Source: Nitrosopumilaceae archaeon
GTDB lineage: Archaea; Thermoproteota; Nitrososphaeria; Nitrososphaerales; Nitrosopumilaceae
DNA length: 32,984 bases
Reading direction: 5' to 3'
Assembly (NCBI GenBank): GCA_052389415.1
Contig: JBQTHX010000059.1
Coordinates: 1-32,984 of the forward strand
Shown: positions 16,357 through 29,997 of the stretch, piece by piece
Layout: the number at the start of each line of letters is the position of its first letter
How positions within the stretch are numbered: position 1 is the first letter of the stretch
The notes under the pieces: generated by a model
The model's database searches: none
What the model saw: the letters and a program-made list of their open reading frames with translations, nothing else
Told to the model about the DNA's origin: nothing
Made by a program: the position numbers and the translations under genes

Positions 16357-16767
16357 TTAATTATTTGATCTCTTCATTATTATATCCCAGATATTCTTTG
16401 GCACAGGCATTACTGATAAGCGCGATATGCGTAAGAGTTCCCAATTTTTGAAAACTGGTTCTTTTTTCATCTCTTCCAAGGTCACTGGTCTCTTGAGTAG
16501 TTTTACAGGTTTAACATCTACAACAACATATCGTCTATCATCTTCGTTGGGATCGGGATAGGGTTGAGACATTATAGCAATAATTCCCACAACCTGTTTT
16601 TCATCTCCTGTATGATAGAAGAGAGCGTGATCTCCTTTTTTCATTGATCTGATGTGCATTAGAGCTAGGTTGTTATGCACCCCATCCCAAACTGTCTTTT
16701 TCTCTTTTTCAAGATGAGTATAATTATAAACTGAAGGTTCCTGTTTTAACAACCAGTATTTTTTCAT
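16357..16767 (-). CDS. EVE domain protein
   Basis: YWLLKQEP, WDGVHN, MKKGDHALFYH and RLSVMPV are typical of EVE/thymocyte nuclear protein. Confidence 0.92.
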   Translation of the reverse strand: MKKYWLLKQEPSVYNYTHLEKEKKTVWDGVHNNLALMHIRSMKKGDHALFYHTGDEKQVVGIIAIMSQPYPDPNEDDRRYVVVDVKPVKLLKRPVTLEEMKKEPVFKNWELLRISRLSVMPVPKNIWDIIMKRSNN

Positions 16768-16813
16768 TTAATTATTTTGTATCACTTTCTTTATGACTTT
16801 TTTTATTATAAAG

Positions 16814-16952
16814 AAATGTTCCCCGGGTCTGACCCACAAAAAGTCATTGGTAGCATTTGCTTTCCCTCATCTTTGTTCTTACACCGGGGTGCCCTGTCGC
16901 ACGGCTGGGTGGACCAAAAATCATGTTTTATCATTCCAGTCCGTCTGCGTGC
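16814..16952 (-). ncRNA. Two-hairpin box H/ACA pseudouridylation guide RNA
   Basis: Minus strand reads GCACG[CAGAC]GGACTGGAA-TGA..ATGA-TTTTTGGTCC[ACCCAGC]CGTGC-G-ACA, then CCCCGG[TGTAAGA]ACAAAG-ATGA..AATGA-CTTTTTGT[GGGTCAGAC]CCGGGG-A-ACA, then a T-rich tail. Each hairpin has a lower stem, pocket, upper stem, K-turn/K-loop GA pairs and an ACA box. Confidence 0.82.
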
Positions 16953-16976
16953 ATTTATGGGCAGATTGTTTTATTA

Positions 16977-18617
16977 CTAGTCAAATATTAATCCAGTTAG
17001 TTTTATTTCGAAACCCACGATTGGAATTCTTAGTTTGAAATTATCAATAATTTCAGGTGAGATTTCACCTATCATACCTATCGGTTTTTCATTAATCATG
17101 ATATTAGCAGATCTCCCTTCTGAAAACATTGGTATTGATGCTCCAATAGTCTTACATTCTAATCCACATCCCATTTTGAGAACAGATTGTAAAACAGATT
17201 TACCCTCACTAAAATTGGCATCGTTGGATGCGCAAACAGATGCAAGATGAATCTCTTCTTTTATCTGGTTTGAGAATCTGGAAAATATCACACCAGTTTC
17301 AAATAGTTTTTGCGGATATGGTTCGTGTATGTTTTTGGAAAGGGTATCGATCAATCCTGGAAGAATGCTATCACGCAATATCGTATGCCCTTGACTTTTA
17401 GAATCAATCGTGGATATTATTTTTGAAGAATCTCTCCCTGTTAAATCATATTGAATTTCTTTGCTTACGAGTCCAAAATTCATAGCTTCAAAATAACCCA
17501 GACCGATCATGACTGAGCTCAATTGGTCTAATGATTTTGTAATCTTATTTTTCTGTCCAACATGTGCAGAGGATGGAATGACAGGTTCCAAATTTTGGAT
17601 CCCATAACCAAGAGCAACCTCTTCTACCAGATCCATGGCTCCAAAAATATCTGTTCGATGTTTTGGGACTGTGCAAATGATTTTTCTTCCTAGCAATTTT
17701 GCGTCCAATCTACTTTTTCTTAATGAAGATGTAATTGTAGAAGGAGAAAGATTAACACCAAGAATTTTGTTTACCAAGTCTACTTCAAGAATCATTTTTC
17801 TTGGATTCATCGATGCTGTAGAATTATTGGCTCCAGAAATTTTGGTTGAAAAGATCGTAAATCCTGCATCATTTAATGCATTAGATACAATTGCAAGAGC
17901 GTCCTCAGCAACATTTTTGTCAATGGCGGTAATCTCTACAAGAAGATTTTGTGTATCTTTTGAAATTGTTGTAAGGTTAGAGTTGATTATGGGTGGAAAA
18001 GAAATAGTATTGCCAGATGCGTCAAAAACAATAGGCATTTTTTCTGAACTTCCAAGAATGTTCCCATATTTTGTTCCTACATCTGTATTCTGGAGTATCT
18101 CCGAGATTGACATTTCTGAAGTTGATGCCAAAGGAACAAACCTGTGGTCTTTGTTTACGGTTGTATAGGTGAGTGGAAATTTAACTTTGTCAAGATCATG
18201 GATTCCAATAGATGCTTTTTTTCGTCTTCTACCTATTCCATTATGGAGATCTTCTTGCATTGCGATTATTTGTCTTATTGTTTCATCGTCAAGTTTTCCG
18301 TTTTTTGCTACCACTGAAGTGATAAATGGTCTTACTTTTTTAACAGATGAATTTACTTTGATGTGATATTTTCCTTTTTTTATTTTTAATTTTGGAATTC
18401 CAGTCTTTATTCCAAGAAGTCCCTGCAAGCCTGAAACAATTCCATAATCAGTAGAATAGTCAGGTCTGTTTGGACTGTATTCTACGGATATGTAGTTTTT
18501 TGTTTGTTCTTCTATGTCTAATCCTATGAAAGGTAAAATTGAGATTATTTTTTCTAATGCTACTTTTTTACCTAGTAGTTTTTGCAACCTATTAAAATAC
18601 AAAGTCACTATAGGCAT
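16977..18617 (-). CDS. pheT: Phenylalanine--tRNA ligase beta subunit
   Basis: Start placed at MPIVTLY (18617); PNRPD, QEDLH..IGRRRKKASIGIHD, DLVEEVALGYG and YPQKLFE. Confidence 0.95.
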   Translation of the reverse strand: MPIVTLYFNRLQKLLGKKVALEKIISILPFIGLDIEEQTKNYISVEYSPNRPDYSTDYGIVSGLQGLLGIKTGIPKLKIKKGKYHIKVNSSVKKVRPFITSVVAKNGKLDDETIRQIIAMQEDLHNGIGRRRKKASIGIHDLDKVKFPLTYTTVNKDHRFVPLASTSEMSISEILQNTDVGTKYGNILGSSEKMPIVFDASGNTISFPPIINSNLTTISKDTQNLLVEITAIDKNVAEDALAIVSNALNDAGFTIFSTKISGANNSTASMNPRKMILEVDLVNKILGVNLSPSTITSSLRKSRLDAKLLGRKIICTVPKHRTDIFGAMDLVEEVALGYGIQNLEPVIPSSAHVGQKNKITKSLDQLSSVMIGLGYFEAMNFGLVSKEIQYDLTGRDSSKIISTIDSKSQGHTILRDSILPGLIDTLSKNIHEPYPQKLFETGVIFSRFSNQIKEEIHLASVCASNDANFSEGKSVLQSVLKMGCGLECKTIGASIPMFSEGRSANIMINEKPIGMIGEISPEIIDNFKLRIPIVGFEIKLTGLIFD

Positions 18618-20080
18618 TTTTGCACACTCCTTAACCAACCCAAGTTGTTATTGTAAAATTCACGAACATCGTTTAAAGCAAATTTTAGCATAGCAATTCG
18701 TTCAATACCTCCTCCCCACGCTAGTACATGGTTGGTAATTCCCAGTGGATTAGTAACTTCTGGTCTGAATATTCCCATCCCAAAAAGCTCCACCCATTTG
18801 TCGAGTTTTTCATTATAAACCATTGATTGTAACGAAGGTTCAGTGTAAGGAAAGAAAGTCGGCCAGAACTTTACTTTCTTGAGACCCATCTTGTAGTAAA
18901 ATTCACGTTGTAGACCCATCAAGTCCCGAATTGTAACATTCTTCCCTACAACTATGCCTTCCACTTGATTAAATTCAACAAGATGCTTGTAACTGACCTT
19001 TTCGTTTCTAAACACTCTACCAACAGAGAAAATTCTTGCTTCGTCTGGCTTGTAGTCCGCCAGATGTCTAATGGTTACACATGTTGTATGTGTACGCAAA
19101 ACCATTCGTTTTGCCTCATTTAATTTCCAATTATAATGCCAACCTTTTTCGTGTGATTTGGATACATTATCTATTTGCCTCGTGGACGCAATTTTGTCTA
19201 CCTTGGCATCTTTAAGATAGAAAGTATCTTGCATTTCTCGTGCGGGATGATCTTGTGGAGTAAAGAGTGCATCAAAATTCCAAAAGCATGGTTGGGTAAG
19301 ATTTCCATATACTTCTGTAAATCCAAGACTAACAAAAATTTCTCTTACCTCATTTATTACATCTTGCAAAGGATGCGATCTAGCTGCAAAAATTTCTGGT
19401 GCTGCAGCCTCTACATCGATTGGTGCAAGAGAAACATCTCTCCATTTTCCACTAGTAAGCATTTCAGTAGTAATCTTTCTTTCACCCGTTGACTCTGATG
19501 TGTCAATCATTATCTGTAACCCTTTAGAGGTAAGGTTTACTAGAGTAGTTTTTACCGAATCTAGTTTAATAAAATCAGGTCTTTTCTTAAGAGTTTCAAA
19601 TGCAGACTTGTCTTTTATTTCTGAAACTGGTGTTCTAGCTGCCAAAACTAAAAGTAATTCTTCTTCTGGAGATTTTGTGATATCATCTTTAAGAGAAATG
19701 ATGTTCGTATTCTGACTTTTTGTTATTTCAATCCAACCGTTTTGTCTTGCATTTGAAATTGCCGCACTAAATTCTGATTCTAAAAGAGCAGTTCTGGCGC
19801 TTTCAAATGTACAAACAGGATGTTTTGAGAGATAGTTTACTAATCTTCTCTCTGGCAATCCCTTCTCAAGTGATTCTTTTCCATTTTTGCCAAGGCTAGT
19901 AAATAATAATTCTGATTCTTGGATTTCTATCAAGTTTTTGTATTTGAGCCACTCCAAACCGCGTCTAATCTGATCTATTGAAAGTTGTGTATTTTTTGCA
20001 AGTTCGTCGGGGCTGATGTTGGGTGTTTGTTTCAGAGTCTTGATTATTTTATGTTCTATTGGATGAAGAACTTGCGACAT
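18608..20080 (-). CDS. pheS: Phenylalanine--tRNA ligase alpha subunit
   Basis: Start placed at MSQVLHP (20080); WNFDALFTPQDHPAREMQDTF, LRTHTT, FRNE, FPYTEPS and GIERIAM. Confidence 0.95.
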   Translation of the reverse strand: MSQVLHPIEHKIIKTLKQTPNISPDELAKNTQLSIDQIRRGLEWLKYKNLIEIQESELLFTSLGKNGKESLEKGLPERRLVNYLSKHPVCTFESARTALLESEFSAAISNARQNGWIEITKSQNTNIISLKDDITKSPEEELLLVLAARTPVSEIKDKSAFETLKKRPDFIKLDSVKTTLVNLTSKGLQIMIDTSESTGERKITTEMLTSGKWRDVSLAPIDVEAAAPEIFAARSHPLQDVINEVREIFVSLGFTEVYGNLTQPCFWNFDALFTPQDHPAREMQDTFYLKDAKVDKIASTRQIDNVSKSHEKGWHYNWKLNEAKRMVLRTHTTCVTIRHLADYKPDEARIFSVGRVFRNEKVSYKHLVEFNQVEGIVVGKNVTIRDLMGLQREFYYKMGLKKVKFWPTFFPYTEPSLQSMVYNEKLDKWVELFGMGIFRPEVTNPLGITNHVLAWGGGIERIAMLKFALNDVREFYNNNLGWLRSVQKCL

Positions 20081-20132
20081 TATCACAAAAAGCAGAAAAG
20101 ACTTTTTAAACCTTAACCTATCTGAATGATGA

Positions 20133-21248
20133 ATGCCAGAAGACGATTTCATAGTTACTCCTTGGAGCGTTGATGGCGACGTTGATTATGACAAACTTGT
20201 CCACAAATTTGGGACCGAAAAAATTTCACAAGAGCTTCTTGAGAAGATAAAAAAGAAAACGGGCGAGCTGCATCCAATGTTAAAGCTAGGATACTTTTTT
20301 AGCCATAGAGATTTGGATAGAGTCTTATTTGAATATGAAAAAGGGAACAAATTCTATCTTTACACAGGTAGGGGGCCATCAGGTTCAGTACATATGGGAC
20401 ATTTACTTCCCTGGATCTTTACTAAATATTTACAAGATAAATTCGATGTTAATTTGATCTTTCAAATAACAGATGATGAAAAATTTCTCTATAGTGACGA
20501 GAGATCCTTTGAGGACGTATCAAAGTACACTTATGAAAACATCTTAGATATCATCGCAGTGGGATTCAATCCAAAGAAGACAAAGATCTTAATTGATTCC
20601 AAGGATATACAACGAATTTACCCAATCTCTTTGGAAATTGCTAAACGAATTACATATTCTACAGTAAAGGCAGTTTTTGGGTTTCAAAATTCTACTAATA
20701 TAGGAATGATAGGATTCCCACCTATCCAGGCAGCACCTTGTTTTCTTCCCTCAGTAATAGAAGGCAAACCTACACCTGTTCTCATACCTGCTGCAATTGA
20801 TCAAGATCCATATTGGCGAGTAACAAGAGATATTGCAGAAAAAATTGGATATCCAAAACCTGCACAAATTCATTCCAAGTTCCTCCCAGGTCTAGGAATG
20901 CAAGGAAAGATGTCTTCTTCCATACCAGAAACTGCAATTTTTACCACAGATGAAGAAGATGCAGTTGATAAAAAGATCTCAAATTCGTTTACTGGAGGTC
21001 AGCCAACTATTGAATTACAACGGAAACTAGGAGCCAACTTCAACATATGTCCAGTGTTTTGGTATTTACGATATTTCTTTGATTCCGAAAAAGATTCTGA
21101 TGAACGAGCAAGAAAATGCAAGGGCGGTGAATTGTTATGTGGTGAATGTAAATGTGATCTTAAAGATTCTACAAAACCTTTCATAATAGATTTCAAGAAA
21201 AAAAGAGAAAAAGCAAAAAACCAGTTGAACCAGTTTTTGTTTGAATAA
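20133..21248 (+). CDS. trpS: Tryptophan--tRNA ligase (archaeal/eukaryotic type)
   Basis: VTPW, YTGRGPS, HMGH, QITDDEK, AIDQDPY and KMSSS. Confidence 0.96.
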   Translation: MPEDDFIVTPWSVDGDVDYDKLVHKFGTEKISQELLEKIKKKTGELHPMLKLGYFFSHRDLDRVLFEYEKGNKFYLYTGRGPSGSVHMGHLLPWIFTKYLQDKFDVNLIFQITDDEKFLYSDERSFEDVSKYTYENILDIIAVGFNPKKTKILIDSKDIQRIYPISLEIAKRITYSTVKAVFGFQNSTNIGMIGFPPIQAAPCFLPSVIEGKPTPVLIPAAIDQDPYWRVTRDIAEKIGYPKPAQIHSKFLPGLGMQGKMSSSIPETAIFTTDEEDAVDKKISNSFTGGQPTIELQRKLGANFNICPVFWYLRYFFDSEKDSDERARKCKGGELLCGECKCDLKDSTKPFIIDFKKKREKAKNQLNQFLFE

Positions 21249-23811: not shown

Positions 23812-23883
23812 TGGACTGGTGGGGATTTGAACCCCAGACCCCCCGCGTGCAAGGCGGGTATTCTACCGCTGAACTACCAGCCC
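23812..23883 (-). tRNA. tRNA-Ala(TGC), no intron
   Basis: GGGCTGG/CCAGTCC acceptor stem with G3:U70; anticodon arm CCCGC-CT-TGC-AC-GCGGG; GTTCAAATC T-loop. Confidence 0.96.
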
Positions 23884-24554: not shown

Positions 24555-24642
24555 GGGCCGATAGCTCAGCTTGGCTGGAGCGTTCGACTGATAAACTTAT
24601 TCAGATATCGAAAGGTCGTGGGTTCGAATCCCATTCGGCCCA
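24555..24642 (+). tRNA. tRNA-Ile(GAT) with a 13-nt canonical intron (24594-24606)
   Basis: GGGCCGA/TCGGCCC acceptor stem; TTCGA-CT-GAT-A|intron|A-TCGAA; BHB central helix CTGA/TCAG. Confidence 0.95.
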
Positions 24643-29923: not shown

Positions 29924-29997
29924 GCTTCGATAGCTCAGCCTGGTAGAGCGTTACCTTGGTAAGGTAAAGGTCGCGGGATCGAATCCCGCTCGGAGCT
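29924..29997 (+). tRNA. tRNA-Thr(GGT), no intron
   Basis: GCTTCGA/TCGGAGC acceptor stem; TTACC-TT-GGT-AA-GGTAA; T arm GCGGG-ATCGAAT-CCCGC. Confidence 0.95.

Follow-up and report, generated by a model that had tools for sequence, protein, structure and literature searches.

What occupies the gap behind pheT in the genome of this Nitrosopumilaceae archaeon? In the window, that is, the whole stretch of DNA analysed (32,984 nucleotides), the program-made reading frames at this locus are overlapping ORFs of 42-81 aa. The earlier note had called them spurious, and indeed no support of any kind was found for them; the protein-coding reading was dropped on the grounds of covariation and of insertions and deletions in the loops. 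The pheT-downstream gap contains a conserved small RNA of the archaeal H/ACA type, a new member of a known RNA class, and this minus-strand sRNA most likely directs Cbf5 to two uridines of the 23S rRNA, to be converted to pseudouridine. Very probably, the locus is a box H/ACA sRNA gene with its own promoter just past pheT, some 150 nt long and comprising two guide hairpins. The two-hairpin core occupies 16952..16814 on the minus strand, and each hairpin is composed of a lower stem, an internal loop and an upper stem in which a K-turn or K-loop is set, with an ACA box behind it. The elements are given below in the order of the predicted transcript.

16983..16991, minus strand: TATA-like box TTAATATTT, within the final pheT codons, 20-28 nt upstream of the leader helix
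16811..16963, minus strand: full extent of the predicted sRNA (some 150 nt), running from the 5' leader through hairpin 1 with its ACA, the linker and hairpin 2 with its ACA to a U-rich tail
16959..16963, minus strand: P0a, UGCCC, 5' strand of the helix enclosing hairpin 1, pairing with GGGCA at 16894-16890
16947..16952, minus strand: hairpin 1 lower stem, 5' strand GCACGC, with covariation
16941..16946, minus strand: hairpin 1 5' guide strand AGACGG, in which GACGG can pair with 23S CCGUC (E. coli 2590-2594)
16911..16942, minus strand: hairpin 1 upper stem with K-loop (GA at 16932-16931 and 16922-16921; 8-nt loop)
16905..16910, minus strand: hairpin 1 3' guide strand ACCCAG, whose complement in the 23S is CUGGGU (E. 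coli 2579-2584)
16899..16904, minus strand: hairpin 1 lower stem, 3' strand CCGUGC, with covariation
16895..16897, minus strand: hairpin 1 ACA box, 13 nt downstream of the A opposite U2584
16890..16894, minus strand: P0b, linker strand GGGCA, partner of the 5' leader
16883..16889, minus strand: hairpin 2 lower stem, 5' strand CCCCGGU, with covariation at pairs 6 and 7
16877..16882, minus strand: hairpin 2 5' guide strand GUAAGA, in which UAAGA can pair with 23S UCUUA (E. coli 1923-1927)
16836..16876, minus strand: hairpin 2 upper stem with K-turn and variable apical loop; compensatory pairs
16828..16835, minus strand: hairpin 2 3' guide strand GGGUCAGA, of which GUCAGA is complementary to 23S UCUGAC (E. 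coli 1915-1920)
16821..16827, minus strand: hairpin 2 lower stem, 3' strand CCCGGGG, with covariation
16817..16819, minus strand: hairpin 2 ACA box, followed by UUUCUUU

The ends of the sRNA are predicted ones, the boundary at 16963 being taken from the conserved leader-linker helix, and a covariance model matches 16811-16955 at 149.9 bits. The stop codon of pheT lies about 14 nt before P0a at 16963 (16964-16976) and 24 nt before the lower stem of hairpin 1 (16952). The TATA-like motif was spotted by eye; the 27 relatives listed have a comparably placed A/T box (TTAATAT, TTTTTAG, TATAAAA), even those in which pheT ends further upstream. The gene pheT is found immediately upstream in 30 of 30 relatives, with protein identity down to 40%, and an EVE-domain gene follows downstream in 20 of them. 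The covarying leader-linker helix, the conserved TATA-like box and the strict pheT synteny are three features that were absent from the earlier note.

Of 61 related genomes searched at the DNA level, 30 contain the stretch, and these 30 sequences form the alignment. Over 29 base pairs, 92.0% of the cells are paired, compared with at most 58.7% when the partner strand is slid. Covariation among relatives, proposed beforehand as a check, came out in favour of the structure: compensatory changes were found at 13 of the 29 pairs in the 30 relatives and at 23 of 29 in 75 matches, and none of 500 shuffles attained any of the covariation measures. Single-sequence folding gives a weak signal (MFE z-score of -1.76, with 12 of 200 shuffles equally stable). 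The covariance model finds one copy in 101 of the 151 genomes of the class, a tally that includes one unpublished genome (G175), and in 79 of the 80 genomes of the own family. The locus had been described as unannotated. In the Rfam search, no H/ACA family (HgcE, HgcF, HgcG etc.) reached the gathering threshold across the whole window, and none appeared on 16700-17050 at E values up to 10. Apart from a U4 fragment without meaning, the Rfam output comprised three tRNAs located in other parts of the window.

The two H/ACA units with K-turn motifs and ACA boxes, as proposed in the earlier note, are conserved in the 30 relatives, the motif of hairpin 1 being a K-loop in this genome. At the level of sequence, the locus shows every hallmark expected of such an archaeal guide, and each is conserved. 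Both ACA boxes are invariant (30/30) and stand 1 nt beyond the lower stem. In the lower stem of hairpin 1, both-sided changes affect 5 of 6 pairs in the 30 sequences and all 6 in the 75 matches. Its upper helix is 96.2% paired, with the 3' UGA of the K-loop invariant and the 5' GA conserved in at least 90% of the 30-sequence alignment; an extra small stem in relatives converts this K-loop into a K-turn. The lower helix of hairpin 2 is 94.8% paired, its seventh pair being a U-C mismatch in this genome. The parts of the hairpin 2 K-turn are a GA at 16868-16867, a GG/CC stem, an AAU bulge and a GA at 16845-16844; in the upper stem, compensatory changes were found at 4 of 7 pairs (30 sequences) or 7 of 7 (75 matches), and the 3' UGA is likewise invariant. 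The GA...UGA arrangement of both hairpins corresponds to the K-turn/K-loop signature of archaeal H/ACA sRNAs and forms, judging by the motif, a putative L7Ae site. From the base of the upper stem to the distal G:A there are 8-10 positions, within the range given in PMC7075261.

The leader-linker duplex is present in 30 of 30 relatives despite differing sequences, and was compared with own-versus-foreign and shuffle controls. It reaches 10 bp in the relative G041, and the sequences of G017, G011, G056 and G039 also differ. Behind hairpin 2, ACAUUU is frequent in the own family, and the oligo-T (UUUCUUU) after the ACA box is what we take to be a likely archaeal termination signal.

The genome assembly itself contains no 23S rRNA gene and half a 16S only, so the target assignments rest on the 23S sequences of relatives, the nearest genome containing the target region being G008, of the same genus. 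These sequences confirm the stated complementarities, in the segments ...GUAACUCUGACUCUCUUAAGG... and ...GAGCUGGGUUUAGACCGUCG..., and in each 23S examined both CUGGGU and UCUGAC occur once. Neither target segment differs among the 34 loci read, which makes guide-target covariation impossible; the helix 69 sequence that the earlier note had given proved exact in all 34, two of them split by an intron. For the GUUCAGA variant of two genera (g54, g66), no matching change in H69 was found. An initial scan that admitted wobble pairs and stem bases returned many meaningless matches and was superseded by fixed-geometry scans with shuffled guides. The spacing rule applied was 15 ± 1 nt from the ACA to the target along the 3' pocket strand; the spacing is 14 nt in hairpin 2, and 13 nt in hairpin 1, or 14 nt with an extra A:U2585 pair.

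Hairpin 2 can pair on the 3' strand of helix 69, with UCUGAC and UCUUA bound and UC left unpaired, as had been claimed, which amounts to canonical geometry with 6 + 5 bp around U1921-C1922. In a scan restricted to this geometry, H69 was the sole match in the 16S and 23S, and 15-20 of 1000 shuffled guides were as good; under loose rules, 352 of 1000 were as good, which is not significant. The GUCAG of the 3' strand is invariant in 52 of 52 rows, which comprise the own family and its two neighbours f4 and f6. Of 20 distant loci, 15 have GUCAGA. In all families, the G that pairs with C1920 is always the 14th nucleotide before the ACA. On the 5' strand, the AGA adjoining the upper stem is retained in most relatives, with 6 exceptions among 30 (AAA in four, AGU in two). 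In the families f29, f25 and f21, GUCAGA abuts the upper stem or sits 1 nt off, so that the pocket is canonical and U1921 and C1922 are unpaired; f29 carries UUGAGA opposite UCUUAA. The distant homologues, with their canonical pocket and constant 14-nt spacing, favour the E. coli-equivalent U1921, which had also been the first choice of the earlier note. It is therefore U1921 that is probably the target of hairpin 2, with U1923, or both sites, as a distinctly smaller possibility. The G and R between the hairpin 2 upper stem and GUCAGA vary among purines only; they could pair with C1922 and U1921, and the target would then shift to U1923.

Hairpin 1 can pair with CUGGGU and, 5 nt further on, with CCGUC, again by 6 + 5 bp. 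This requires a loosened geometry with 4-5 unpaired target bases, for which 48 of 1000 shuffled guides were as good; overall, the statistics of pairing are no more than moderate. The opinion that the 5' strand of this hairpin fits poorly did not hold, since GACGG pairs with CCGUC once these bases are left unpaired. ACCCAG is invariant in the same 52 of 52 rows, and AGACGG is kept in the 30 relatives except for the first A, which is U in G041; in distant families this first base becomes U or C, able to pair with G2595. In 9 of the 20 distant loci ACCCAG is lengthened to AACCCA(G), whose pairing takes in U2585 as well and brings U2586 to the same spacing of 14 nt. Of the earlier proposal for hairpin 1, the complementarity of ACCCAGC to GCUGGGU stands; as the target, the comparative data lean to U2586 more than to U2585. 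The assignment to U2586 seems slightly better than an even chance, and U2585 is a tentative second choice. In the 23S of G015, the equivalents of E. coli 1921, 2586 and 2585 are positions 2031, 2692 and 2691.

The genome encodes matches to Cbf5 (379.9 bits), Nop10 (73.5 bits) and L7Ae (99.3 bits), every score lying above its cut-off, and a weak candidate for Gar1 (21.6 bits, under the Pfam cut-off of 29.3). In one groundwater metatranscriptome, 12 short contigs span 16820-16958, of which 6 are at least 99% alike; among the 8 contigs listed, lengths range from 37 to 115 nt. The differences of the RNA contigs concentrate in the apical loop of hairpin 2 (16855-16864). No contig of this run covers the 400 nt flanking the sRNA on either side. 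The RNA evidence comes from one run of one study, with a 0.07 share of words, and flank cover was judged from contigs, which carry no information on strand, expression level or the ends of the transcript.

Structure, conservation, complementarity, partner genes and RNA-library cover confined to the sRNA were observed directly. Protein binding, the exact sites and the modification are what we infer for the following route. Transcription would start from the sRNA's own promoter directly after pheT. L7Ae would bind the K-loop or K-turn of each hairpin, and Cbf5-Nop10, possibly with Gar1, the lower stem as well as the ACA box, while the leader-linker helix would enclose hairpin 1 together with its ACA box. 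The internal-loop strands would then pair with the 23S rRNA on both sides of one uridine, hairpin 2 on the 3' strand of helix 69 and hairpin 1, with an unusually long unpaired stretch, on the peptidyl-transferase region, and Cbf5 would isomerise the flanked uridine to pseudouridine.

A real H/ACA guide acting on other sites, hairpin 2 on U1923, hairpin 1 on U2585, or one of the hairpins on another RNA, is a rather improbable explanation of the same facts. U1923 would be guided by means of an 8-bp duplex UCUGACUC/GRGUCAGA: throughout the 52 rows of the own family and its neighbours, the two positions preceding GUCAGA are occupied by G and G/A, which are able to pair with C1922 and U1921; opposite U1915, too, variation is limited to purines in 29 of 30 sequences, and the spacing would be 16 nt, within the 15 ± 1 rule. 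Moreover, according to PMC11077068, a pseudouridine is mapped at this position in S. islandicus, guided by a 3' strand only. However, the base facing C1922 is U, C or absent in f24, f25, f29 and f21, so it is the 14-nt register that is conserved and not the 8-bp duplex, and a target at U1923 would leave the 5' strand with only 2 bp. As for U2585, the own family has a C opposite it, which makes U2585 the most 5' unpaired U, the one converted in Haloferax (PMC7075261). Against other targets, no further rRNA site was found in canonical geometry, and among tRNAs, which were scanned by loose rules only, none scored above 10/13.

The constant presence of pheT upstream (30/30) and the frequent EVE gene downstream (20/30), as well as the short distances from the pheT stop codon to P0a (about 14 nt) and to the hairpin 1 stem (24 nt), could be expected of a cis element of pheST, namely a structured 3' UTR, a terminator or an L7Ae-binding regulator of pheT or the EVE gene that guides nothing in trans. 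This is very unlikely, given that the distance from the TATA-like box to the RNA stays constant even where pheT ends 60-185 nt further upstream and that the RNA contigs lie on the sRNA, with none on pheT or the EVE gene; it would also leave unexplained the invariant ACA boxes, 13-14 nt from strands that match functional centres of the rRNA. It is hardly credible that an H/ACA-shaped RNP serves as a folding chaperone of 50S assembly on H69 and the PTC, non-catalytic at one or both sites. The 4-5 unpaired target bases in the hairpin 1 pocket are atypical for catalysis, and both targets are, by general knowledge, late-folding functional centres, but the catalytic requirements are all conserved (ACA, spacing, K-turn, an intact Cbf5 match), and atypical pockets are active in Haloferax (PMC7075261) and Sulfolobus (PMC11077068). 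The pseudouridine guide with sites in H69 and the peptidyl-transferase region remains the preferred reading.

Related guides are known from other archaea. In Pyrococcus, Pab35, Pab105 and Pab40 carry several K-turn or K-loop H/ACA motifs per transcript, as in the RNA described here, and motif 3 of Pab40 guides a uridine of the helix-69 loop (P. abyssi 2016); the sequences and sites of these guides are unlike those found here (PMC2377435). Pab91 was considered as a counterpart of hairpin 1 and rejected: by the offsets in PMC2377435, its site, 2685, lies 13 nt past the E. coli-2580 equivalent and corresponds to about E. coli 2593, not to 2585/2586.

A close parallel, judged by its published description, is sR-h45 of Haloferax (PMC7075261). 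There, too, one transcript has two K-turn hairpins, one of them with an atypical pocket, the 5' hairpin guiding a PTC uridine (Hv 2605, E. coli 2586, two bases past the m3U equivalent) and the 3' hairpin acting on H69. In the same account, the sites of sR-h45 in H69 are loop positions, equivalent to E. coli 1915 and 1917 and arranged as UNUN, and it has a 56-nt linker with a possible pseudoknot, and an AUA H-box (PMC7075261). Unlike it, the RNA described here pairs with 1915-1920 and points at the stem position 1921, its linker is 5-12 nt long and paired to the 5' leader, and its first box is ACA. A second parallel comes from the TACK archaeon S. islandicus, whose atypical H/ACA RNA sR148 is an H69 guide that likewise reaches the 3' strand and, according to PMC11077068, guides U2066 (equivalent to yeast 2266 and E. 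coli 1923) and U2060 (E. coli 1917). Unlike sR148, the RNA described here has the classic hairpin form, complete with its two guide strands and an ACA box, and most likely points two bases upstream of the U2066 site, to 1921.

Eukaryotic H/ACA snoRNAs have a hairpin-hinge-hairpin-tail layout similar to that of this sRNA; unlike it, they lack the K-turn, and they have an ANANNA H box and different proteins (Nhp2). Yeast snR3 and snR84 and their human counterparts guide the pseudouridines of the H69 3' strand, at 2264 and 2266 of yeast 25S; the equivalence of yeast 2266 is backed by a published paper. The description of the H69 guide as eukaryote-like can be retained in a narrower sense than was claimed, because S. 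islandicus has the yeast-2266 equivalent, that is, an H69 stem pseudouridine.

Ammonia-oxidising archaea belong to the planet's most abundant microbes, and the assignment of the host to this group agrees with the archaeal amoA found in its genome. Full-text searching of the published literature found no description of pseudouridine guide RNAs in ammonia-oxidising archaea: for H/ACA guides of Thaumarchaeota, Nitrosopumilus and Nitrososphaera nothing relevant appeared in full texts, and no pseudouridine map for these organisms was found in the literature searched. PMC4652768 does not mention Thaumarchaeota, Nitrosopumilus or Nitrososphaera. The covariance model can be used to annotate one conserved sRNA gene throughout the class, and the sRNA predicts two specific modifications, placed in the two functional centres that matter most to the large subunit. 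If the H69 site is true, a TACK archaeon would use an RNA guide for a stem pseudouridine that is known in eukaryotes.

The order of hairpins common to this RNA and sR-h45 raises the question of the age of multi-hairpin guides. It may be speculated, with considerable doubt, that the double hairpin of a PTC guide followed by an H69 guide is an ancient unit shared by descent between this class and the haloarchaea, predating the divergence of the major archaeal lineages and a plausible forerunner of the eukaryotic hairpin-hinge-hairpin-tail RNA. In this lineage the H69 hairpin would then have moved from the loop uridines to a stem uridine, with the leader-linker helix replacing the hinge.

Supplementary tables of the papers, such as the table of sites across species in PMC11077068, may include further archaeal H69 sites. 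In the maps consulted, modification of the stem uridine equivalent to yeast 2264 is confined to eukaryotes.

On the minus strand, positions 16952..16814 contain two consecutive hairpin units built on the same plan, each with a K-motif and an ACA box, downstream of pheT. The hairpins, which had been described in the earlier note, are confirmed by conservation and covariation in 30 relatives. The small ORFs overlapping the sRNA are without support, and the note rightly took these frames for spurious; what it overlooked was a helix between the leader and the linker, a TATA-like box and the synteny with pheT. The parts of the sRNA and the neighbouring genes are as follows.

16977-20152, minus strand: pheST, with the sRNA gene directly downstream
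16977-18638, minus strand: pheT, preceded by pheS; upstream neighbour of the sRNA
16991-16983, minus strand: TATA-like box TTAATATTT in the last pheT codons, 20-28 nt upstream of the leader-linker helix (motif picked by eye)
Within 16952..16814, minus strand: lower stem of hairpin 1, GCACG(C)/(C)CGUGC
Same RNA, minus strand: internal loop strands of hairpin 1, AGACGG and ACCCAG
Same RNA, minus strand: upper stem of hairpin 1, unbroken into GA...UGA around an 8-nt loop (K-loop)
Same RNA, minus strand: box of hairpin 1, ACA, 1 base 3′ of the lower stem
Same RNA, minus strand: lower stem of hairpin 2, CCCCGG(U)/(C)CCGGGG
Same RNA, minus strand: internal loop strands of hairpin 2, GUAAGA and GGGUCAGA
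Same RNA, minus strand: upper stem of hairpin 2, terminating in a K-turn (GA, 2-bp GG/CC stem, bulge AAU, GA)
Same RNA, minus strand: box and tail of hairpin 2, ACA then UUUCUUU
16357-16767, minus strand: EVE-domain (PUA-like) protein gene, downstream neighbour of the sRNA
23812-23883 (minus), 24555-24642 (plus) and 29924-29997 (plus): three tRNA genes, the sole Rfam matches in the window at gathering thresholds

As was found by the DNA search, the sRNA stretch is present in 30 of 61 related genomes, comprising 26 of the 36 other genomes of the same family plus members of two other families. The gene pheT lies upstream in all 30 (loci L004-L033), down to 40% protein identity, and the EVE-domain gene lies downstream in 20 of them. 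In a MAFFT alignment of these relatives (A1), both ACA boxes, the 3′ UGA of both K-motifs and the segments ACCCAG, GACGG and GUCAG are invariant, which bears out the boxes and K-motifs of the earlier note. The stems show compensatory changes, among them GCACGC/GCGUGC, GCACAC/GUGUGC and GCAUAC/GUAUGC, GGACUGG/..GGUCC versus GGAUUAG/CUAAUUC, and CCCCGG/CCGGGG versus CCCCGU/GCGGGG. All four helices were recovered independently by RNAalifold. Standard pairs occupy 92.0% of the alignment cells of the 29-pair structure and at most 58.7% after displacement of the 3′ partner by 1-3 columns; both sides change in 13 of the 29 pairs, and none of 500 column shuffles attained any of the five measures. The folding energy of the sRNA is ordinary (z = -1.76; 12 of 200 shuffles fold equally well).

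Of the searches proposed in the earlier note, that against Rfam gave no family match for the sRNA, whether gathering thresholds were applied or E values up to 10 were allowed. A covariance model built from A1 (R1) matched 101 of 151 genomes sampled from the window's class, once per genome except for three genomes of family f9. Matches were found in 79 of 80 genomes of the window's own family (f1), 3/3 of f9, 8/10 of f24, 2/2 of f29, 2/3 of f15, 2/8 of f25, 2/14 of f22, 2/9 of f21 and 0/17 of f26, a tally that counts one unpublished genome, G175, supporting no other claim. When 75 matches from 72 loci were aligned to R1 (A3), 92.2% of the cells were paired, 23 of the 29 pairs were compensatory and 0 of 500 shuffles attained the observed values, although A3 leans towards the structure because it is fitted to the model. 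Distant families carry wholly different stems, e.g. GCGUAG/CUACGC and CCAUGU/ACAUGG. In the three f9 genomes (G044, G059 and G177; loci L113, L116 and L117), the hairpins lie apart and give two separate R1 matches each, the spacer being about 30-65 nt compared with 5-12 nt; here two genes may be arising from one unit, or the unit may contain an insertion.

UGCCC in the 5′ leader (16963-16959) forms a duplex with GGGCA (16894-16890), the linker that joins the first ACA box to hairpin 2. This duplex is present in 30 of 30 relatives, its sequence varying on both sides (GCUCGC/GCGGGC, GCCCAC/GUGGGC, GUGCCUC/GGGGCAC, UACCUC/GAGGUG), and it reaches 10 bp in one genome, G041 (GGCUUUCGUC/GACGAAAGCC). 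For G041 and G017, good pairing of the leader is confined to the linker of the same genome, and shuffled leaders equal the real pairing energy in 0-15 of 300 trials. Hairpin 1 and its ACA box are predicted to be enclosed in a closed junction, and because of the helix the 5′ end of the RNA would lie at or before about 16963. In the 27 relatives displayed, an A/T box, again recognised by eye, stands about as far upstream; it reads TTTTTAG, ATTTAG or TATAAAA where pheT ends 60-185 nt further from the sRNA. In the window's genome the last codons of pheT appear by eye to double as the TATA-like box.

Expression data were available as contigs from one public groundwater metatranscriptome run of one study (0.07 share of words), aligned to 16400-17400. 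Twelve contigs span 16820-16958; the eight listed measure 37-115 nt, and six of the twelve agree with the window at 99% or more. No contig of this run covers the approximately 400 nt of flanking coding sequence on each side. The contigs differ mostly at 16855-16864, in the hairpin 2 apical loop, the region that is variable among relatives. This cover, by contigs of a single run that record neither strand nor ends nor level, suits an abundant short RNA better than DNA carry-over or pheT mRNA.

The window's genome encodes an archaeal amoA (366 bits), and the organism is therefore an ammonia oxidiser, in agreement with the earlier note. Cbf5 (379.9 bits), Nop10 (73.5 bits) and L7Ae (99.3 bits) are each encoded above the curated cut-off; for Gar1 there is a weak candidate only (21.6 bits against a cut-off of 29.3). 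The search of the assembly for 23S rRNA found none, and the 16S rRNA is represented by its first half, at a contig end (C16:29132-29871), as is typical of a metagenome-assembled genome. Claims on rRNA targets in this organism therefore rest on relatives: complete 23S and 16S sequences were taken from the family members G015 and G020, and the segment from 23S helix 69 (H69) to the peptidyl-transferase region (PTC) from 34 genomes, namely 30 relatives and four genomes of f24. One of the 34, G008, belongs to the window's own genus. The H69 target segment GGGAGUAACUCUGACUCUCUUAAGGUAGCC, intron-interrupted in two genomes, and the PTC target segment CUGGGUUUAGACCGUCGUGAGACAGG are identical in all 34, so the H69 sequence given in the earlier note was correct. 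UCUGAC and CUGGGU each occur once per 23S examined. The E. coli numbers of the target sites are presumed assignments based on the E. coli sequence. They were cross-checked with the table for S. islandicus (U2060 = E. coli 1917; U2066 = yeast 2266; PMC11077068), the distance between m3U and Psi in Haloarcula and Haloferax (PMC7075261) and the P. abyssi offsets (PMC2377435).

In hairpin 2, GUCAGA can pair with U1915-C1920 and UAAGA with U1923-A1927, leaving U1921 and C1922 unpaired; the G opposite C1920 is the 14th base before ACA. A fixed-geometry scan gave the H69 site as the sole match in 16S and 23S, with shuffled guides performing as well in 15 of 1000 trials (G015 guide) and 20 of 1000 (window's guide). 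Under loosened rules the pairing is not significant (352 of 1000 shuffled guides), and the case for U1921 rests on the fixed geometry and conservation. In yeast, a pseudouridine occurs at 2264, the equivalent of E. coli 1921. Of the two sites named in the earlier note, U1921 at 14 nt is probably the target, since distant families keep this register while the bases before GUCAGA differ. U1923 at 16 nt, ranked second and rather unlikely, would be reached through an 8-bp duplex, because G and G/A before GUCAGA can pair with C1922 and U1921. The variation of these two bases in the window's own and neighbouring families, which is only purine-purine, agrees with such a duplex, as does a pseudouridine mapped at the equivalent S. 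islandicus position (PMC11077068), but in distant families the bases are UG or CG (f24), C (f25), U (f21) or none (f29), with GUCAGA constantly 14 nt from ACA. The remaining and smallest share of probability falls to both uridines or neither. With U1921 as the predicted target, the f29 pocket is fully canonical (UUGAGA opposite UCUUAA), and the 5′ strand GAGAGU of f4 and f9 could pair with C1922-U1926, leaving U1921 free.

Only hairpin 2 is recognisable in 4 of 20 distant loci (f15, f21 and one of f25). In f22 (L109 of G078 and L118 of G089) the PTC guide of hairpin 1 is kept, and hairpin 2 has the 3′ guide strand GGGUUGGA or GGGUUAGA and a different lower stem; the changed guide implies a different target.

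In hairpin 1, ACCCAG pairs with C2579-U2584, and in the window's genome the next base, C, pairs with G2578, in line with the complementarity of ACCCAGC and GCUGGGU pointed out in the earlier note. The poor fit which that note ascribed to the 5′ strand did not hold, GACGG being the exact complement of C2590-C2594. The pairing leaves U2585, U2586, A2587, G2588 and A2589 unpaired. The pyrimidines closing the upper stem are alternative partners for two Gs of GACGG (G-C or G-U; the changes are one-sided), so both pairs would need opening for the target. GACGG does not vary within the own and neighbouring families, and of the 16 distant loci with a recognisable hairpin 1 it is kept in 15, G071 having AACGG. 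The own family has A as the preceding base; distant families have U or C, either able to pair with G2595.

The PTC site proposed earlier is retained, with U2586 modestly preferred to U2585 as the predicted uridine. In the own family a C stands opposite U2585, which is therefore the first unpaired U from the 5′ side, at 13 nt from ACA, and U2585 is a possible though less probable target; nevertheless, AACCCA(G), present in 9 of 20 distant loci, pairs through U2585 and places U2586 at the 14-nt spacing seen in hairpin 2. The equivalent of U2586 is modified in Haloferax (Psi2605) and Haloarcula (PMC7075261). With loosened geometry, 48 of 1000 shuffled guides score equally well, and the pairing statistics of hairpin 1 seem suggestive, not strong.

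Judged at the sequence level, the molecule is an archaeal box H/ACA sRNA. Its closest described relative in function is sR-h45 of Haloferax volcanii, a double stem-loop in which the 5′ hairpin guides Psi2605 (E. coli 2586). Its 3′ hairpin has an atypical UNUN configuration and serves two sites of the H69 loop, Psi1940 (E. coli 1915) and Psi1942 (E. coli 1917) (PMC7075261). The order of targets is the same, the PTC guide being 5′ and the H69 guide 3′, whereas the H69 site, the linker (56 nt with a possible pseudoknot in sR-h45, a short leader-pairing strand here) and the first box (AUA in sR-h45, ACA here) differ (PMC7075261). Sulfolobus islandicus sR148, which lacks ACA, uses one 3′ strand to guide the equivalents of E. 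coli 1917 and 1923 (PMC11077068), and motif 3 of Pyrococcus Pab40 is a guide for an H69 loop uridine (PMC2377435, PMC6138745). Pab91 was ruled out as a counterpart of hairpin 1, its site lying at about E. coli 2593 by the offsets of the paper (PMC2377435, PMC6138745). The equivalent of E. coli 1921 is absent from the main-text maps of Haloferax, S. islandicus and P. abyssi, the supplementary cross-species tables of which may differ. The sRNA family is well supported and belongs to a well-known RNA class; it is apparently undescribed, since full-text literature searching for H/ACA guides of Thaumarchaeota, Nitrosopumilus or Nitrososphaera turned up none; PMC4652768 mentions none of the three. 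New are its breadth across the class of ammonia oxidisers, the leader-linker helix, the predicted stem site in H69 and the parallel with sR-h45.

Several relatives possess an insertion of about 700 nt inside the H69 region of 23S (~2264-2971 in L065 of G056, ~2259-2941 in L043 of G018), and G041 and G059 give split matches over this region. The G018 insertion follows ...AAGGUA, and its longest ORF has no Pfam match. The insertion of G056 follows ...CUGACUCUC, within the predicted pairing stretch of the hairpin 2 5′ strand, and has a LAGLIDADG endonuclease gene (63.7 bits) in the same orientation as the rRNA. These insertions look like rRNA introns; if guiding precedes splicing, G056 would lack the 3′ half of the target duplex.
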